Positions 6,709-43,606 of a DNA stretch of 64,000 nucleotides are shown here, one piece after another. The notes under the pieces are model-generated. The model was not told the DNA's origin. It did not search any database and saw only the letters and a program-made list of their open reading frames with translations. Made by a program: the position numbers and the translations under genes. Within the stretch, counting starts at the first letter, position 1. Every line of letters begins with the position of its first letter. This DNA comes from Escherichia coli. GTDB lineage: Bacteria > Pseudomonadota > Gammaproteobacteria > Enterobacterales > Enterobacteriaceae. The stretch lies in assembly GCF_003334305.1 (NCBI RefSeq), contig NZ_QOWS01000006.1; one strand, given 5' to 3'.

Positions 6709-8625
6709 ATGGGTAAAATAATTGGTATCGACCTGGGTACTACCAACTCTTGTGTAGCGATTATGGATGGCACCACTCCTCGTGTGCTGGAGAACGCCGA
6801 AGGCGATCGCACCACGCCTTCTATCATTGCCTATACCCAGGATGGTGAAACTCTGGTTGGTCAGCCGGCTAAACGTCAGGCAGTGACGAACCCGCAAAAC
6901 ACCCTGTTTGCGATTAAACGCCTGATTGGCCGCCGCTTCCAGGACGAAGAAGTACAGCGTGATGTTTCCATCATGCCGTTCAAAATTATTGCTGCTGATA
7001 ACGGCGACGCATGGGTCGAAGTTAAAGGCCAGAAAATGGCACCGCCGCAGATCTCTGCTGAAGTGCTGAAAAAAATGAAGAAAACCGCTGAAGATTACTT
7101 GGGTGAACCGGTAACTGAAGCTGTTATCACCGTACCGGCATACTTTAACGATGCTCAGCGTCAGGCAACCAAAGACGCAGGCCGTATCGCTGGTCTGGAA
7201 GTAAAACGTATCATCAACGAACCGACCGCAGCTGCGCTGGCTTACGGTCTGGACAAAGGTACTGGCAACCGTACTATCGCGGTTTATGACCTGGGTGGTG
7301 GTACTTTCGATATTTCTATTATCGAAATCGACGAAGTTGACGGCGAAAAAACCTTCGAAGTTCTGGCTACCAACGGTGATACCCACCTGGGTGGTGAAGA
7401 CTTCGACAGCCGTCTGATCAACTACCTGGTTGAAGAATTCAAGAAAGATCAGGGCATTGACCTGCGCAACGATCCGCTGGCAATGCAGCGCCTGAAAGAA
7501 GCGGCAGAAAAAGCGAAAATCGAACTGTCTTCCGCTCAGCAGACCGACGTTAACCTGCCGTACATCACTGCAGATGCGACCGGTCCGAAACACATGAACA
7601 TCAAAGTGACTCGTGCGAAACTGGAAAGCCTGGTTGAAGATCTGGTAAACCGTTCCATTGAGCCGCTGAAAGTTGCACTGCAGGACGCTGGCCTGTCCGT
7701 ATCTGATATCGACGACGTTATCCTCGTTGGTGGTCAGACTCGTATGCCAATGGTTCAGAAGAAAGTTGCTGAGTTCTTTGGTAAAGAGCCGCGTAAAGAC
7801 GTTAACCCGGACGAAGCTGTAGCAATCGGTGCTGCTGTTCAGGGTGGTGTTCTGACTGGTGACGTGAAAGACGTACTGCTGCTGGACGTTACCCCGCTGT
7901 CTCTGGGTATCGAAACCATGGGCGGTGTGATGACGACGCTGATCGCGAAAAACACCACTATCCCGACCAAGCACAGCCAGGTGTTCTCTACCGCTGAAGA
8001 CAACCAGTCTGCGGTAACCATCCATGTGCTGCAGGGTGAACGTAAACGTGCGGCTGATAACAAATCTCTGGGTCAGTTCAACCTGGATGGTATCAACCCG
8101 GCACCGCGCGGCATGCCGCAGATCGAAGTTACCTTCGATATCGATGCTGACGGTATCCTGCACGTTTCCGCGAAAGATAAAAACAGCGGTAAAGAGCAGA
8201 AGATCACCATCAAGGCTTCTTCTGGTCTGAACGAAGATGAAATCCAGAAAATGGTACGCGACGCAGAAGCTAACGCCGAAGCTGACCGTAAGTTTGAAGA
8301 GCTGGTACAGACTCGCAACCAGGGCGACCATCTGCTGCACAGCACCCGTAAGCAGGTTGAAGAAGCAGGCGACAAACTGCCGGCTGACGACAAAACTGCT
8401 ATCGAGTCTGCACTGACTGCACTGGAAACTGCTCTGAAAGGTGAAGACAAAGCCGCTATCGAAGCGAAAATGCAGGAGCTGGCACAGGTTTCCCAGAAAC
8501 TGATGGAAATCGCCCAGCAGCAACATGCCCAGCAGCAGACTGCCGGTGCTGATGCTTCTGCAAACAACGCGAAAGATGACGATGTTGTCGACGCTGAATT
8601 TGAAGAAGTCAAAGACAAAAAATAA
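6709..8625 (+). CDS. dnaK: Molecular chaperone DnaK (Hsp70)
   Basis: 638-aa ORF with [17 protein letters not shown] and other Hsp70 signatures. Confidence 0.98.
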
Positions 8626-30764: not shown

Positions 30765-31160
30765 ATGTGTGAAGGATATGTTGAAAAACCACTCTACTTG
30801 TTAATCGCCGAATGGATGATGGCTGAAAATCGGTGGGTGATAGCAAGAGAGATCTCTATTCATTTCGATATTGAACACAGCAAGGCGGTTAATACCCTGA
30901 CTTATATTCTGTCGGAAGTCGCAGAAATAAGCTGCGAAGTTAAGATGATCCCTAATAAGCTGGAAGGACGGGGATGCCAGTGCCAGCGACTGGTAAAAGT
31001 GGTCGATATCGATGAGCAAATTTACGCGCGCCTGCGCAATAACAGCCGGGATAAATTAGTCGGCGTAAGAAAGACGCCGCGTATTCCTGCCGTTCCGCTC
31101 ACGGAACTTAACCGCGAGCAGAAGTGGCAGATGATGTTGTCAAAGAGTATGCGTCGTTAA
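30765..31160 (+). CDS. caiF: Transcriptional activator CaiF of the cai and fix operons
   Basis: ORF 30660..31160; ATG at 30765 gives the 131-aa protein MCEGYVEKPLYLLIAEW. Confidence 0.9.
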   Translation: MCEGYVEKPLYLLIAEWMMAENRWVIAREISIHFDIEHSKAVNTLTYILSEVAEISCEVKMIPNKLEGRGCQCQRLVKVVDIDEQIYARLRNNSRDKLVGVRKTPRIPAVPLTELNREQKWQMMLSKSMRR

Positions 31161-36881: not shown

Positions 36882-38399
<1,518 letters not shown>

Positions 38400-38647
38400 T
38401 TAATTCCACTGTGAAAACGAATATTTATTTTGCGTTCCCGTTTGTTTTATTTTTGTTAACATTTAATATAATTATTATTAACCTCGTGGACGCGTTAATG
38501 GCTAACTCATAATGGGTATTCAATAAGCTGCATTCTGTGATTGTTATCACATTTTTGTTTCGGGTGAATAGAGGGCGCTTTTCTCGTTAATTTTGATTAT
38601 TAATCAGTTTGTTATGTTGTGTTGTGAGTAAAAAAATAGCATCTGAC

Positions 38648-38778
38648 TTTCAATATTGGTGATCCATAAAGCAATATTGAAAATTTCTTTTTGCTACGCC
38701 ATGTTTTCAATATTGGTGAGGAACTTAACAATATTGAAAGTTGGATTTATCTGCGTGTGACATTTTCAATATTGGTGA
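38648..38778. promoter_or_regulatory. cai/fix divergent control region with reiterated CaiF-type operator half-sites
   Basis: TTTCAATATTG-N13-CAATATTGAAA appears twice (38648..38682 and 38705..38739), with a third TTTCAATATTGGTGA at 38764..38778; spacing is about 57-59 bp. Confidence 0.6.
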
Positions 38779-38869
38779 TTAAAGTTTTATTTCCAAATTA
38801 AAGGGCGTGATATCTGTAATTAACACCACCGATATGAACGACGTTTCCTTCATGATTTCTGGAGATGCA

Positions 38870-39640
38870 ATGAAGATTATTACTTGCTATAAGTGCGTGC
38901 CTGATGAACAGGATATTGCGGTCAATAATGCTGATGGTTCATTAGACTTCAGCAAAGCCGATGCCAAAATAAGCCAATACGATCTGAACGCTATTGAAGC
39001 GGCTTGCCAGCTAAAGCAACAGGCAGCAGAGGCGCAGGTGACGGCCTTAAGTGTGGGCGGTAAAGCCCTGACCAACGCCAAAGGGCGTAAAGATGTGCTA
39101 TCGCGCGGCCCGGATGAACTGATTGTGGTGATTGATGACCAGTTCGAGCAGGCACTGCCGCAACAAACGGCGAGCGCACTGGCTGCAGCCGCCCAGAAAG
39201 CAGGCTTTGATTTGATCCTCTGTGGCGATGGTTCTTCCGACCTTTATGCCCAGCAGGTTGGTCTGCTGGTGGGTGAAATCCTCAATATTCCGGCAGTTAA
39301 CGGCGTCAGCAAAATTATCTCCCTGACGGCAGATACCCTCACCGTTGAGCGCGAACTGGAAGATGAAACCGAAACCTTAAGCATTCCGCTGCCTGCGGTT
39401 GTTGCTGTTTCCACTGATATCAACTCCCCACAAATTCCTTCGATGAAAGCCATTCTCGGCGCGGCGAAAAAGCCAGTCCAGGTATGGTCGGCGGCGGATA
39501 TCGGTTTTAACGCCGTGGACGCCTGGTCTGAACAACAGGTTGCTGCGCCGAAACAGCGCGAACGTCAGCGCATCGTGATTGAAGGCGACGGCGAAGAACA
39601 GATCGCCGCATTTGCTGAAAATCTTCGCAAAGTCATTTAA
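38870..39640 (+). CDS. fixA: Electron transfer flavoprotein beta-subunit homolog FixA
   Basis: ORF 38807..39640; ATG at 38870 gives the 256-aa protein [15 protein letters not shown]. Confidence 0.94.
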
Positions 39641-39654
39641 TTACAGGGGATGCT

Positions 39655-40596
39655 ATGAACACGTTTTCTCAAGTCTGGGTATTCAGCGATACCCCTTCTC
39701 GTCTGCCGGAACTGATGAACGGTGCGCAGGCTTTAGCTAATCAAATCAACACCTTTGTCCTCAATGATGCCGACGGCGTACAGGCAATCCAGCTCGGCGC
39801 TAATCATGTCTGGAAATTAAACGGCAAACCGGACGATCGGATGATCGAAGATTACGCCGGTGTCATGGCTGACACTATTCGCCAGCACGGCGCAGACGGC
39901 CTGGTGCTGCTGCCAAACACCCGTCGCGGCAAATTACTGGCGGCAAAACTGGGTTATCGCCTTAAAGCGGCGGTGTCTAACGATGCCAGCACCGTCAGCG
40001 TACAGGACGGTAAAGCGACAGTGAAACACATGGTTTACGGTGGTCTGGCGATTGGCGAAGAACGCATTGCCACGCCGTATGCGGTACTGACCATCAGCAG
40101 CGGCACGTTCGATGCGGCTCAGCCAGACGCGTCACGCACTGGCGAAACGCACACCGTGGAGTGGCAGGCTCCGGCTGTGGCGATTACCCGCACGGCAACC
40201 CAGGCGCGCCAGAGCAACAGCGTCGATCTCGACAAAGCCCGTCTGGTGGTCAGCGTCGGTCGCGGTATTGGCAGCAAAGAGAACATTGCGCTGGCAGAAC
40301 AGCTTTGCAAGGCGATAGGTGCGGAGTTGGCCTGTTCTCGTCCGGTGGCGGAAAACGAAAAATGGATGGAGCACGAACGCTATGTCGGTATCTCCAACCT
40401 GATGCTGAAACCTGAACTGTACCTGGCGGTGGGGATCTCCGGGCAGATCCAGCACATGGTTGGTGCTAATGCATCGCAAACCATTTTCGCCATCAACAAA
40501 GATAAAAATGCGCCGATCTTCCAGTACGCGGATTACGGCATTGTTGGCGACGCCGTGAAGATCCTTCCGGCGCTGACCGCAGCTTTAGCGCGTTGA
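39655..40596 (+). CDS. fixB: Electron transfer flavoprotein alpha-subunit homolog FixB
   Basis: 313-aa [15 protein letters not shown]. Confidence 0.95.
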
Positions 40597-40646
40597 TCCA
40601 CTCTGGCAGGGCTGCATTTTGGCCCTGCCGCTGACAGGGAGCTCTT

Positions 40647-41933
40647 ATGTCCGAAGATATCTTTGACGCCATCATCGTCGGTGCAGGGCTTGCCGGTTCG
40701 GTTGCCGCACTGGTGCTCGCCCGCGAAGGTGCGCAAGTGTTAGTTATCGAGCGTGGCAATTCCGCAGGTGCCAAGAACGTCACCGGCGGGCGTCTCTATG
40801 CCCACAGTCTGGAACACATTATTCCTGGTTTCGCCGACTCCGCCCCCGTAGAACGCCTGATCACCCATGAAAAACTCGCGTTTATGACGGAAAAGTCAGC
40901 GATGACTATGGACTACTGCAACGGTGACGAAACCTCGCCATCCCAGCGTTCTTACTCCGTTTTGCGCAGTAAATTTGATGCCTGGTTGATGGAGCAGGCC
41001 GAAGAAGCGGGCGCGCAGTTAATTACCGGGATTCGTGTCGATAACCTCGTACAGCGCGATGGCAAAGTCGTCGGTGTAGAAGCCGATGGCGATGTGATTG
41101 AAGCGAAAACGGTGATCCTTGCTGACGGGGTGAATTCCATCCTTGCCGAAAAGTTGGGGATGGCAAAACGCGTTAAACCGACGGATGTGGCGGTTGGCGT
41201 GAAGGAACTGATCGAGTTACCGAAGTCGGTAATCGAAGACCGTTTTCAGTTGCAGGGTAATCAGGGCGCGGCTTGTCTGTTTGCGGGATCACCCACCGAT
41301 GGCCTGATGGGCGGCGGCTTCCTTTATACCAATGAAAATACCCTGTCGCTGGGGCTGGTTTGTGGTCTGCATCATCTGCATGACGCAAAAAAATCGGTGC
41401 CGCAAATGCTGGAAGATTTCAAACAACATCCGGCCGTTGCACCGCTGATCGCGGGTGGCAAGCTGGTGGAATATTCCGCTCACGTAGTGCCGGAAGCAGG
41501 CATCAACATGCTGCCGGAGCTGGTCGGTGACGGCGTATTGATTGCCGGCGATGCCGCCGGAATGTGTATGAACCTCGGTTTTACCATTCGCGGTATGGAT
41601 CTGGCGATTGCCGCCGGGGAAGCTGCAGCAAAAACCGTGCTTTCAGCGATGAAAAGCGACGATTTCAGTAAGCAAAAACTGGCGGAATATCGTCAGCATC
41701 TTGAGAGTGGCCCGCTGCGCGATATGCGCATGTACCAGAAACTACCGGCGTTCCTTGATAACCCACGCATGTTCAGCGGCTACCCGGAGCTGGCGGTGGG
41801 CGTGGCGCGTGACCTGTTCACCATTGACGGCAGTGCGCCAGAACTGATGCGCAAGAAAATCCTCCGCCACGGTAAGAAAGTGGGCTTCATCAATCTAATC
41901 AAGGATGGCATGAAAGGAGTGACCGTTTTATGA
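40647..41933 (+). CDS. fixC: FAD-dependent oxidoreductase FixC (ETF-quinone oxidoreductase-like)
   Basis: 428-aa ORF with N-terminal FAD-binding GAGLAG motif. Confidence 0.95.
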   Translation: MSEDIFDAIIVGAGLAGSVAALVLAREGAQVLVIERGNSAGAKNVTGGRLYAHSLEHIIPGFADSAPVERLITHEKLAFMTEKSAMTMDYCNGDETSPSQRSYSVLRSKFDAWLMEQAEEAGAQLITGIRVDNLVQRDGKVVGVEADGDVIEAKTVILADGVNSILAEKLGMAKRVKPTDVAVGVKELIELPKSVIEDRFQLQGNQGAACLFAGSPTDGLMGGGFLYTNENTLSLGLVCGLHHLHDAKKSVPQMLEDFKQHPAVAPLIAGGKLVEYSAHVVPEAGINMLPELVGDGVLIAGDAAGMCMNLGFTIRGMDLAIAAGEAAAKTVLSAMKSDDFSKQKLAEYRQHLESGPLRDMRMYQKLPAFLDNPRMFSGYPELAVGVARDLFTIDGSAPELMRKKILRHGKKVGFINLIKDGMKGVTVL

Positions 41934-42274: not shown

Positions 42275-43606
42275 ATGCAACCGTCCAGAAACTTTGACGA
42301 TCTCAAATTCTCCTCTATTCACCGCCGCATTTTGCTGTGGGGAAGTGGTGGTCCGTTTCTGGATGGTTATGTACTGGTAATGATTGGCGTGGCGCTGGAG
42401 CAACTGACTCCGGCGCTGAAACTGGACGCTGACTGGATTGGCTTGCTGGGTGCGGGAACGCTCGCCGGGCTGTTCGTTGGCACATCGCTGTTTGGCTATA
42501 TCTCCGATAAAGTCGGACGGCGCAAAATGTTCCTCATTGATATCATCGCCATCGGCGTGATATCGGTGGCGACGATGTTTGTCTCATCCCCTGTCGAACT
42601 GTTGGTGATGCGGGTACTTATCGGCATTGTCATCGGTGCAGATTATCCCATCGCCACCTCAATGATCACCGAGTTCTCCAGTACCCGTCAGCGGGCGTTT
42701 TCCATCAGCTTTATCGCCGCCATGTGGTATGTCGGCGCGACCTGCGCCGATCTGGTCGGCTACTGGCTTTATGATGTGGAAGGCGGCTGGCGCTGGATGC
42801 TGGGTAGCGCGGCGATCCCCTGTTTGTTGATTTTGATTGGTCGATTCGAACTGCCTGAATCTCCCCGCTGGTTATTACGCAAAGGGCGAGTAAAAGAGTG
42901 CGAAGAGATGATGATAAAACTGTTTGGCGAACCGGTGGCTTTCGATGAAGAGCAGCCGCAGCAAACCCGTTTTCGCGATCTGTTTAATCGCCGCCATTTT
43001 CCTTTTGTTCTGTTTGTTGCCGCCATCTGGACCTGCCAGGTGATCCCAATGTTCGCCATTTACACCTTTGGCCCGCAAATCGTTGGTTTGTTGGGATTGG
43101 GGGTTGGCAAAAACGCGGCACTGGGGAACGTGGTGATTAGCCTGTTCTTTATGCTCGGCTGTATTCCGCCGATGCTGTGGCTAAACACTGCCGGACGGCG
43201 TCCATTGTTGATTGGCAGCTTTGCCATGATGACGCTGGCGCTGGCGGTTTTGGGGCTGATCCCGGATATGGGGATCTGGCTGGTAGTGATGGCCTTTGCG
43301 GTGTATGCCTTTTTCTCTGGCGGGCCGGGTAATTTGCAGTGGCTCTATCCTAATGAACTCTTCCCGACAGATATCCGCGCCTCTGCCGTGGGCGTGATTA
43401 TGTCCTTAAGCCGTATTGGCACCATTGTTTCGACCTGGGCACTGCCGATCTTTATCAATAATTACGGTATCAGTAACACGATGCTAATGGGGGCGGGTAT
43501 CTCGCTGTTTGGCTTGTTGATTTCCGTAGCGTTTGCCCCGGAGACTCGAGGGATGTCACTGGCGCAAACCAGCAATATGACGATCCGCGGGCAGAGAATG
43601 GGGTAA
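42275..43606 (+). CDS. yaaU: Major facilitator superfamily transporter YaaU
   Basis: 443-aa 12-helix membrane ORF. Confidence 0.92.
   Translation: MQPSRNFDDLKFSSIHRRILLWGSGGPFLDGYVLVMIGVALEQLTPALKLDADWIGLLGAGTLAGLFVGTSLFGYISDKVGRRKMFLIDIIAIGVISVATMFVSSPVELLVMRVLIGIVIGADYPIATSMITEFSSTRQRAFSISFIAAMWYVGATCADLVGYWLYDVEGGWRWMLGSAAIPCLLILIGRFELPESPRWLLRKGRVKECEEMMIKLFGEPVAFDEEQPQQTRFRDLFNRRHFPFVLFVAAIWTCQVIPMFAIYTFGPQIVGLLGLGVGKNAALGNVVISLFFMLGCIPPMLWLNTAGRRPLLIGSFAMMTLALAVLGLIPDMGIWLVVMAFAVYAFFSGGPGNLQWLYPNELFPTDIRASAVGVIMSLSRIGTIVSTWALPIFINNYGISNTMLMGAGISLFGLLISVAFAPETRGMSLAQTSNMTIRGQRMG

Follow-up and report, generated by a model that had tools for sequence, protein, structure and literature searches.

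CaiF and GrlA are members of one small family of regulators (Pfam CaiF_GrlA), and the homology between the two proteins has been stated before (PMC9979310). CaiF is described only as an activator (PMC12083890; PMC3680233; PMC2131755). In two openly accessible accounts, binding of CaiF is reported at two sites, F1 and F2, which share the form 5'-TTTCAATATTG-N13-CAATATTGAAA-3' (PMC12083890; PMC3680233; both citing Buchet et al. 1999, Mol Microbiol 34:562), and several CRP molecules have been stated to act at the cai-fix region as well (PMC3105977). At the distal LEE1 promoter, GrlA, the relative of CaiF in EHEC and EPEC, occupies the 18-bp spacer that separates -35 from -10 and activates transcription in a MerR-like manner (PMC10877973; PMC4856446; Islam et al. 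2011, Mol Microbiol 79:468, as cited in PMC3130263). We confirmed the LEE1 sequence, which reads TTGACA-TTTAATGATAATGTATTT-TACACA and is located about 200 bp upstream of ler.

A third CaiF site is absent from the open accounts of the footprints, which name F1 and F2 only, as late as 2025 (PMC12083890; PMC3680233), and a literal search of the open literature for the motif returned PMC12083890 alone in this context, again with no third site, as was also the case for searches by promoter name. The unpaired copy of the CaiF recognition arm considered here, designated P, appears from its sequence to be a promoter-embedded site absent from the accessible literature. The advance is a modest one, consisting of a new site and a comparative picture in a known system. 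Since the accounts list only F1 and F2, P may be unbound by purified CaiF in vitro, may have been positioned off the tested fragment, or may simply have gone unreported.

The window, that is, the whole 64-kb stretch of Escherichia coli DNA analyzed here, contains caiT, the first gene of caiTABCDE (36882..38396, minus strand), and fixA, the first gene of fixABCX (38870..39640, plus strand). The repeats are located inside the 473-bp divergent intergenic region between these genes, with caiT to their left and fixA to their right, and the assignment to the cai/fix control region made in the first-pass annotation is thereby borne out. Of 5426 complete E. coli genomes, 5392 contain the caiT-fixA region; in a K-12-like record, caiT occupies 40417-41931 and fixA 42403-43173. 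The gene of the cognate regulator, caiF (30765..31160, plus strand), encodes a product of 131 aa, which scores 219 bits against the NCBIfam CaiF equivalog (cut-off 140) and matches Pfam CaiF_GrlA (PF07180) with E = 2.2e-6. A structured RNA was not detected in the intergenic region, where Rfam gave only a sub-threshold snoRNA match (E = 0.67).

A pattern search of the 64-kb window recovered five exact copies of TTTCAATATTG, at 38648-38658 (+), 38672-38682 (-), 38705-38715 (+), 38729-38739 (-) and 38764-38774 (+), all of which are packed into 127 bp. By chance, a mean of 0.04 exact copies is expected in the window, and none of 100 dinucleotide-preserving shuffles reached five. With one mismatch allowed, seven matches were obtained vs 1.77 expected; the additional ones (at 13212, and at 30863 inside caiF) are at chance level and were rejected as further operators. 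The repeat finder grouped four of the copies into two perfect inverted repeats of 11-N13-11, unit 1 at 38648..38682 and unit 2 at 38705..38739, whose starts are 57 bp apart, and the lone copy follows 59 bp beyond. It also returned the direct repeat TTTCAATATTGGTGA(T/G) in three copies, the second 57 bp after the first and the third 59 bp after the second. The arrangement given in the first-pass annotation, two [sequence]-N13-[sequence] units about 57 bp apart and a third half-site about 59 bp further on, is thus exact in every particular. A feature absent from that annotation is the self-complementary 8-mer CAATATTG, which is contained in every TTTCAATATTG arm. Because this core is self-complementary, the polarity of an arm is set by its flanks only. 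Four other CAATATTG 8-mers in the window were dismissed as operators, their count being close to expectation.

Units 1 and 2 agree exactly with the published sequence of F1 and F2, so that the operator form given in the first-pass annotation, 11-bp inverted arms with a 13-bp spacer, is the documented one, and its proposed comparison with published CaiF footprints, as described in PMC12083890 and PMC3680233, ends in the same place. By sequence, the two palindromes are the known CaiF sites; the naming of unit 1 as F1 and of unit 2 as F2 is an assumption of this analysis. Since they are identical to the published sites, the palindromes themselves add nothing new. The third copy differs from them in that it does not form a perfect 11-bp inverted repeat with an N13 spacer. 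The expectation that the periodicity would place the sites on the same helix face is not upheld. At 10.5 bp per turn, 57 bp correspond to 5.43 turns and 59 bp to 5.62 turns; the spacing is therefore close to 5.5 turns, and adjacent units lie on roughly opposite faces of the helix, about 150-220 degrees out of phase. In phase are the two CAATATTG cores within one palindrome (21 bp, 2.0 turns) and alternate units (116-118 bp).

The unpaired, promoter-proximal half-site P is located at 38764..38779 on the plus strand and consists of TTTCAATATTG followed by an invariant GTGAT. The first-pass annotation had noted that the third half-site has no obvious partner, and this proved correct: at the N13 position, 38788-38798, the sequence TATTTCCAAAT matches 4/11 by hand count, with mismatches at 6/10 positions of the 10-bp core. 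In both F1 and F2, the fix-ward arm has the same 11-mer as P and is followed by the same GTGA. An equivalent half-site in the spacer of the cai promoter (ATTCAATAAGC, 38517-38527, 7/11) was considered and rejected as chance, because only GGTATTC is conserved there and the remainder varies even among E. coli strains.

For comparison across enteric genera, 80 caiT loci were sampled, one genome per species; in 51 of them a divergent fixA lies no more than about 800 bp away from caiT, and the intergenic region was taken from these. Adding the window and three E. coli variants brought the set to 55 sequences, 54 of which were used for counts. The 10-bp core of P, TTCAATATTG, is exact in 49/54 genomes and present with at most one mismatch in 53/54, the sole exception being Entomohabitans, in which P is decayed. 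Its position is stable as well: relative to the fixA ATG, P lies between -102 and -107 in nearly all genomes of Enterobacteriaceae and Morganellaceae, apart from Citrobacter sedlakii (-91) and Providencia heimbachae (-138). In an alignment anchored on P, information peaks at TTCAATATTGGTGAY-N3-GGT(T/A)TTATTT, the flanks cannot be aligned between families, and 14 consecutive bases at P are invariant across three families. A partner arm for P was rejected on the same material: in 53/54 genomes there is no N13 arm, the right arm of P showing 4-7 mismatches of 10, and no second CAATATTG core occurs 21 bp downstream.

The palindromes upstream of P behave differently, their number ranging from zero to three by clade. 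P is kept with no palindrome at all in Edwardsiella, Hafnia, Serratia sp. H1w, Leminorella, Limnobaculum and Budvicia (Hafniaceae and Budviciaceae), and in all of these but Budvicia it is the only copy. One palindrome is found in Yokenella, Atlantibacter, Pluralibacter, Trabulsiella and two further Enterobacteriaceae, two are found in Escherichia, Citrobacter, Salmonella, Phytobacter and Providencia (degenerate in Providencia), and Proteus has three, all at 59-bp steps. Nearly all Enterobacteriaceae and Morganellaceae have retained the unit 2 palindrome, located at about -165 relative to the fixA ATG. P and its nearest palindrome are 59 bp apart in 38/43 genomes; the others have 60 bp (four genomes) or 61 bp (one genome), and the spacing between palindromes is looser (55-59 bp). 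The apparent orphan is therefore what stays constant in the array, and the variation resides in the palindromes. The treatment of the third copy as a minor leftover is thus reversed by the comparative data, which make P the most conserved element of the array. This comparative picture, with zero to three palindromes, a constant P and a 59-bp register, is not contained in the open accounts of F1 and F2.

The flanks of the arms provide further information on what is recognized. Next to fix-ward arms with at most one mismatch, (G/T)TG(A/G) follows in 141/141 cases and TGA in 140/141, and after the fix-ward arm of palindromes (G/T)TGA is invariant in 83/83; the flanks of the cai-ward arms are variable. 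In the palindromes, this TGA is at the same time the left half of a CRP-like motif. Since P has no right half of a CRP motif, the TGA flank may there belong to the recognition sequence of CaiF.

Variation within E. coli points in the same direction. The 95-bp segment 38743-38837, which contains P and the promoter, was matched in 5391 complete genomes, 4456 (83%) of them identical to the window. For the 95-bp segment 38648-38742, which contains F1 and F2, 1085 of 5380 matched genomes (20%) are identical, with the differences located in the spacers and the linker, and the 95-bp control segment 38553-38647 was matched in 3105 genomes, of which 1218 are identical and 740 show 90-95% identity. Free variation of the repeats among strains, which had been named beforehand as an observation that would speak against operators, is not what was found, as all five arms are intact in two strains whose overall identity in the region is about 94%. 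The number of operator units changes naturally within E. coli: in strain GTVSS-020 of serogroup O121 (NZ_CP176678, L086 2490-2580), a deletion of 57 bp runs cleanly from the fix-ward arm of F1 to that of F2, which leaves a single hybrid palindrome and P, in the layout found in Yokenella.

Insertion elements were also observed in this region. In E. coli SEV4 (L085 1290-1300 and 2505-2515), an IS3-family element is inserted in AGTTTT directly 3' of P and parts P from fixA. In E. coli SFE8 (L004 ~2749), IS26 is located at a point that corresponds to about 38646 of the window, and resistance genes are found in place of the fix side.

Such changes in unit number bear on an alternative reading, according to which the third copy is a non-functional remnant of a third unit of 57-59 bp that lost its right arm. 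The units are indeed related by duplication, as indicated by the direct repeats D1 (51 nt, 73% identity) and D2 (three copies), and their number does change by recombination. A remnant should decay, however, whereas P is conserved better than any other part of the array, hardly varies within E. coli, and persists in families that have no palindrome. We therefore regard an origin of P as a mere relic as highly improbable.

A promoter scan places a probable fix promoter at 38757..38785 on the plus strand, with a -35 element GTGACA at 38757-38762 and a -10 element TAAAGT at 38780-38785, the overall match count of the scan being not above chance. The 17-bp spacer, TTTTCAATATTGGTGAT, consists of P and its flank. 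The -35-like GTGACA matches the consensus at 5/6 positions and is conserved within the clade of Escherichia, Citrobacter and Salmonella. In the same clade, the -10 element occurs as TAAAGT, TAATGT, TATTGT, TAAGGT or TATGGT; T1, A2 and T6 are kept in all genomes but one (CAATGT in Citrobacter Res13) and positions 3-5 vary, as would be expected if this is a genuine -10 element. For Proteus and Edwardsiella, the prediction of a canonical promoter at P gave nothing above chance. Conserved together with P is a T-rich block at 38784..38792 on the plus strand, GTTTTATTT, which reads GTATTATTT in Hafniaceae and Budviciaceae and points to a -10 element located 5 bp farther downstream in other genera, TATTAT being a good match in these two families. 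Under either -10, P would be located inside the core promoter, at about -28 to -18 or, with the alternative element, at about -33 to -23.

These positions depend on a probable transcription start, for which the CRP sites provide a reference. According to work of Buchet et al. from 1998, the start sites of cai and fix reportedly lie 289 bp apart, CRP site 1 is said to be centered at -41.5 of cai and sites 2 and 3 at -69.5 and -126.5 of fix, and a 50-bp region overlapping the start of the fix mRNA was reportedly required for transcription of cai. In the window, a CRP-like motif is nested in the spacer of each palindrome: GGTGA-N6-AAGCA in unit 1 (38658..38673), which agrees with TGTGA-N6-TCACA at 6/10 core positions and which we take to be CRP site 3 at -126.5 of fix, and GGTGA-N6-TAACA in unit 2 (38715..38730), with 8/10 core positions, presumably CRP site 2 at -69.5. 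The assignment of the nested motifs to CRP, which is partly based on these reported positions, is a putative one; they lie 57 bp apart, consistent with the reported fix positions. On the other side, a perfect CRP site, TGTGATTGTTATCACA, is found at 38536..38551, conserved across genera, together with the -10 element CATTAT of the cai promoter (38514-38509, minus strand). We take this site to be the one at -41.5 of the cai promoter, which would place the cai start at about 38502. The fix start, judged from the reported CRP positions and the consensus scan, would be located at about 38792, seven bases after TAAAGT. The resulting distance between the two starts is 290 bp (288 in K-12, owing to two 1-bp deletions in between), and with a fix start at 38792, F2 is centered at -70 and F1 at -127.

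Two additional features of this region were observed. The block 38805-38822 (GCGTGATATCTGTAATTA), at about +14 to +31 of the putative fix transcript, is found at a fixed distance downstream of P in all three families, with the equivalents CATGGTATTTCTATTG in Hafniaceae and Budviciaceae and ATGTTAATTCTATATTACA in Proteus; it could be a leader element, a site of another regulator or, in some clades, the real -10 element, and the Proteus version has an ArcA-box-like look. At the cai promoter of Hafniaceae and Budviciaceae (L048-L056), the equivalent of the class II CRP activator site reads GTGATCTTAATCAA, which is closer to the FNR box TTGAT-N4-ATCAA and suggests that a different global regulator acts at the same position of this promoter.

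The motif is furthermore linked to the presence of the regulator. A caiF orthologue is present in every motif-bearing locus long enough to show caiF (52 loci, 44-98% identity). Conversely, the 10-mer is absent from 24/26 caiT loci which do not contain caiF, among them those of Shewanella, Campylobacter, Ferrimonas and Malaciobacter, and the other two contain one copy each, far from caiT. In caiF-bearing loci, nearly all copies of the 10-mer are located in the cai-fix region, with eight single copies elsewhere. Residues of CaiF needed for its DNA-dependent function or reported as DNA contacts include Y11, N43, Y47, R75, V42 and T46 (PMC12083890); 53 orthologues show no change at Y11, N43, Y47 or R75 and conservative changes only at V42 and T46. 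The invariance of the DNA-contacting residues fits that of the DNA motif. The sole relative of CaiF in the PDB is GrlA (4KT5_C), with E = 1e-3 over the N-terminal helix-turn-helix (HTH).

Outside the HTH, two stretches of CaiF were observed to be invariant or nearly so in the 53 orthologues, EGRGCQCQR at residues ~66-75 and LNxxQKWQxxLSK at residues ~113-127, and both are candidates for effector binding or oligomerization.

Based on its position, its conservation and this co-occurrence, we consider it probable that P is a functional, CaiF-related promoter element, a single-arm candidate CaiF site in the fix core promoter. A competing account is that P is conserved as core-promoter DNA contacted by RNA polymerase, and that its identity with the CaiF arms reflects common descent of the units and not binding. 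This would agree with the location of P between promoter-like hexamers, with the conservation of P and the adjacent T-rich, -10-like block at a fixed spacing, and with the listing of F1 and F2 only in the open account of the footprints (PMC12083890). However, a spacer is normally free to vary, yet 14 bases are invariant here in three families, and the conserved bases are exactly those common to the proven CaiF arms, the GTGA flank included. In addition, the motif is missing from nearly all caiT loci without caiF, and the -35-like hexamer is not conserved outside the Escherichia clade, as expected for an activator-dependent promoter. We consider this account unlikely, while part of the conservation of P could stem from promoter function rather than from CaiF.

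A protein bound between the -35 and -10 elements usually represses transcription, which counts against activation from P. P might act as a negative or gating site, at which CaiF without its effector, or another protein that recognizes CAATATTG, blocks RNA polymerase until a carnitine-derived signal arrives. The location at about -28 to -18 is typical of repressors; we know of no second regulator for the CAATATTG motif, which speaks against such a gate. Basal expression of cai and fix is very low despite the 5/6 match of the -35 element, as a gate would predict (for induction, see PMC2131755), but the description of CaiF as an activator only (PMC12083890; PMC3680233; PMC2131755) and the activation by its homologue GrlA from the same kind of position (PMC10877973; PMC4856446) render a gating role quite improbable.

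Returning to P as a single-arm CaiF site, the following mechanism can be proposed. CaiF, activated by a carnitine-derived CoA ester, acts at units 1 and 2, the known sites F1 and F2, each of which offers two recognition arms flanking a nested CRP-like motif; this arrangement of arms around the motif leads us to propose that CaiF and cAMP-CRP act together on both promoters. In E. coli, P would fill the spacer between the -35 and -10 elements of fix, which recalls the binding of GrlA, a homologue of CaiF, to a promoter spacer. A CaiF protomer in the spacer would then help RNA polymerase, as GrlA does at LEE1, which is a guess, and P perhaps anchors a higher-order complex of CaiF and CRP that also drives cai about 290 bp away. 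P would be the ancestral, constant element and the upstream palindromes accessory modules, whose number may have changed as units of about 58 bp were gained or lost, the register with P being held at 59 bp. In its full form, with P as an ancestral and essential CaiF target of GrlA type, F1 and F2 as later enhancers, and P as the cis element near the fix start which is needed for cai, this joint reading is held tentatively, with somewhat less than even confidence.

The comparison with GrlA at LEE1 reveals likenesses as well as differences. At LEE1 the target is located in the spacer between -35 and -10, and P would take the corresponding place in the fix promoter, which is a consensus match with a start placed from the reported CRP positions; (T/G)TGACATTT is found in both promoters where the -35 element meets the spacer. 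In contrast, the LEE1 spacer is 18 bp long, a non-optimal length that forms part of how GrlA works, whereas the fix spacer has the optimal 17 bp and thus falls short of the 18-19 bp of the over-long spacers associated with GrlA-like activation. The spacers are unrelated apart from TGACATTT and have no CAATATTG core in common, and GrlA, unlike CaiF, acts without known upstream palindromic sites or a CRP partnership. Compared with F1 and F2, P has the same 11-mer and GTGA flank as their fix-ward arms but lacks the inverted arm and is located in the core promoter and not upstream of it; binding of CaiF at P is putative. The combination of strong upstream sites with a weaker promoter-proximal element and CRP as co-activator also resembles AraC at I1-I2 of araBAD and class II CRP/FNR promoters. 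In those systems, however, the promoter-proximal site is centered near -41.5 and overlaps or adjoins the -35 element; P has its center at about -23 (or about -28), and CaiF is a small protein of winged-helix type, which Pfam does not place in the AraC family.

If P is indeed a CaiF site, the GrlA mode of activation from inside the core promoter would extend to the other characterized member of the family, and there would be a concrete explanation why DNA around the fix start is needed for expression of cai. Changing CAATATTG to CAGTACTG in P alone would then abolish the CaiF-dependent induction of fix and lower the induction of cai. A further site would also be relevant to carnitine biosensors based on the fix promoter, whose design assumes two sites only (PMC12083890). 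With zero, one, two or three palindromes in front of a constant P, nature provides a set of variants that bears on how upstream sites tune the output.

Several peculiarities were observed in Hafniaceae and Budviciaceae. In these families (L024, L046, L048, L050, L051, L053-L056), caiF is located several kb beyond the fix operon and not beside caiE. The caiT-fixA intergenic region measures 650-770 bp, and P is situated 264-349 bp upstream of the fixA ATG, a distance which suggests a long leader or an unannotated feature. In Leminorella and Limnobaculum (L024, L046, L054), an isolated exact cai-ward arm, CAATATTGAAA, is found at -35/-36 from the fixA ATG, where it adjoins the ribosome-binding region of fixA about 234 bp downstream of P, either by chance or as a distant partner. 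In Budvicia aquatica (L051 ~8454-8490), where palindromes are absent, the P block occurs in tandem, TTTCAATATTGGTGATGAAGGTATTGT and TTTCAATATTGGTGATAGAGGTATTAT, with the two copies 27 bp apart at -339 and -312 from the fixA ATG.
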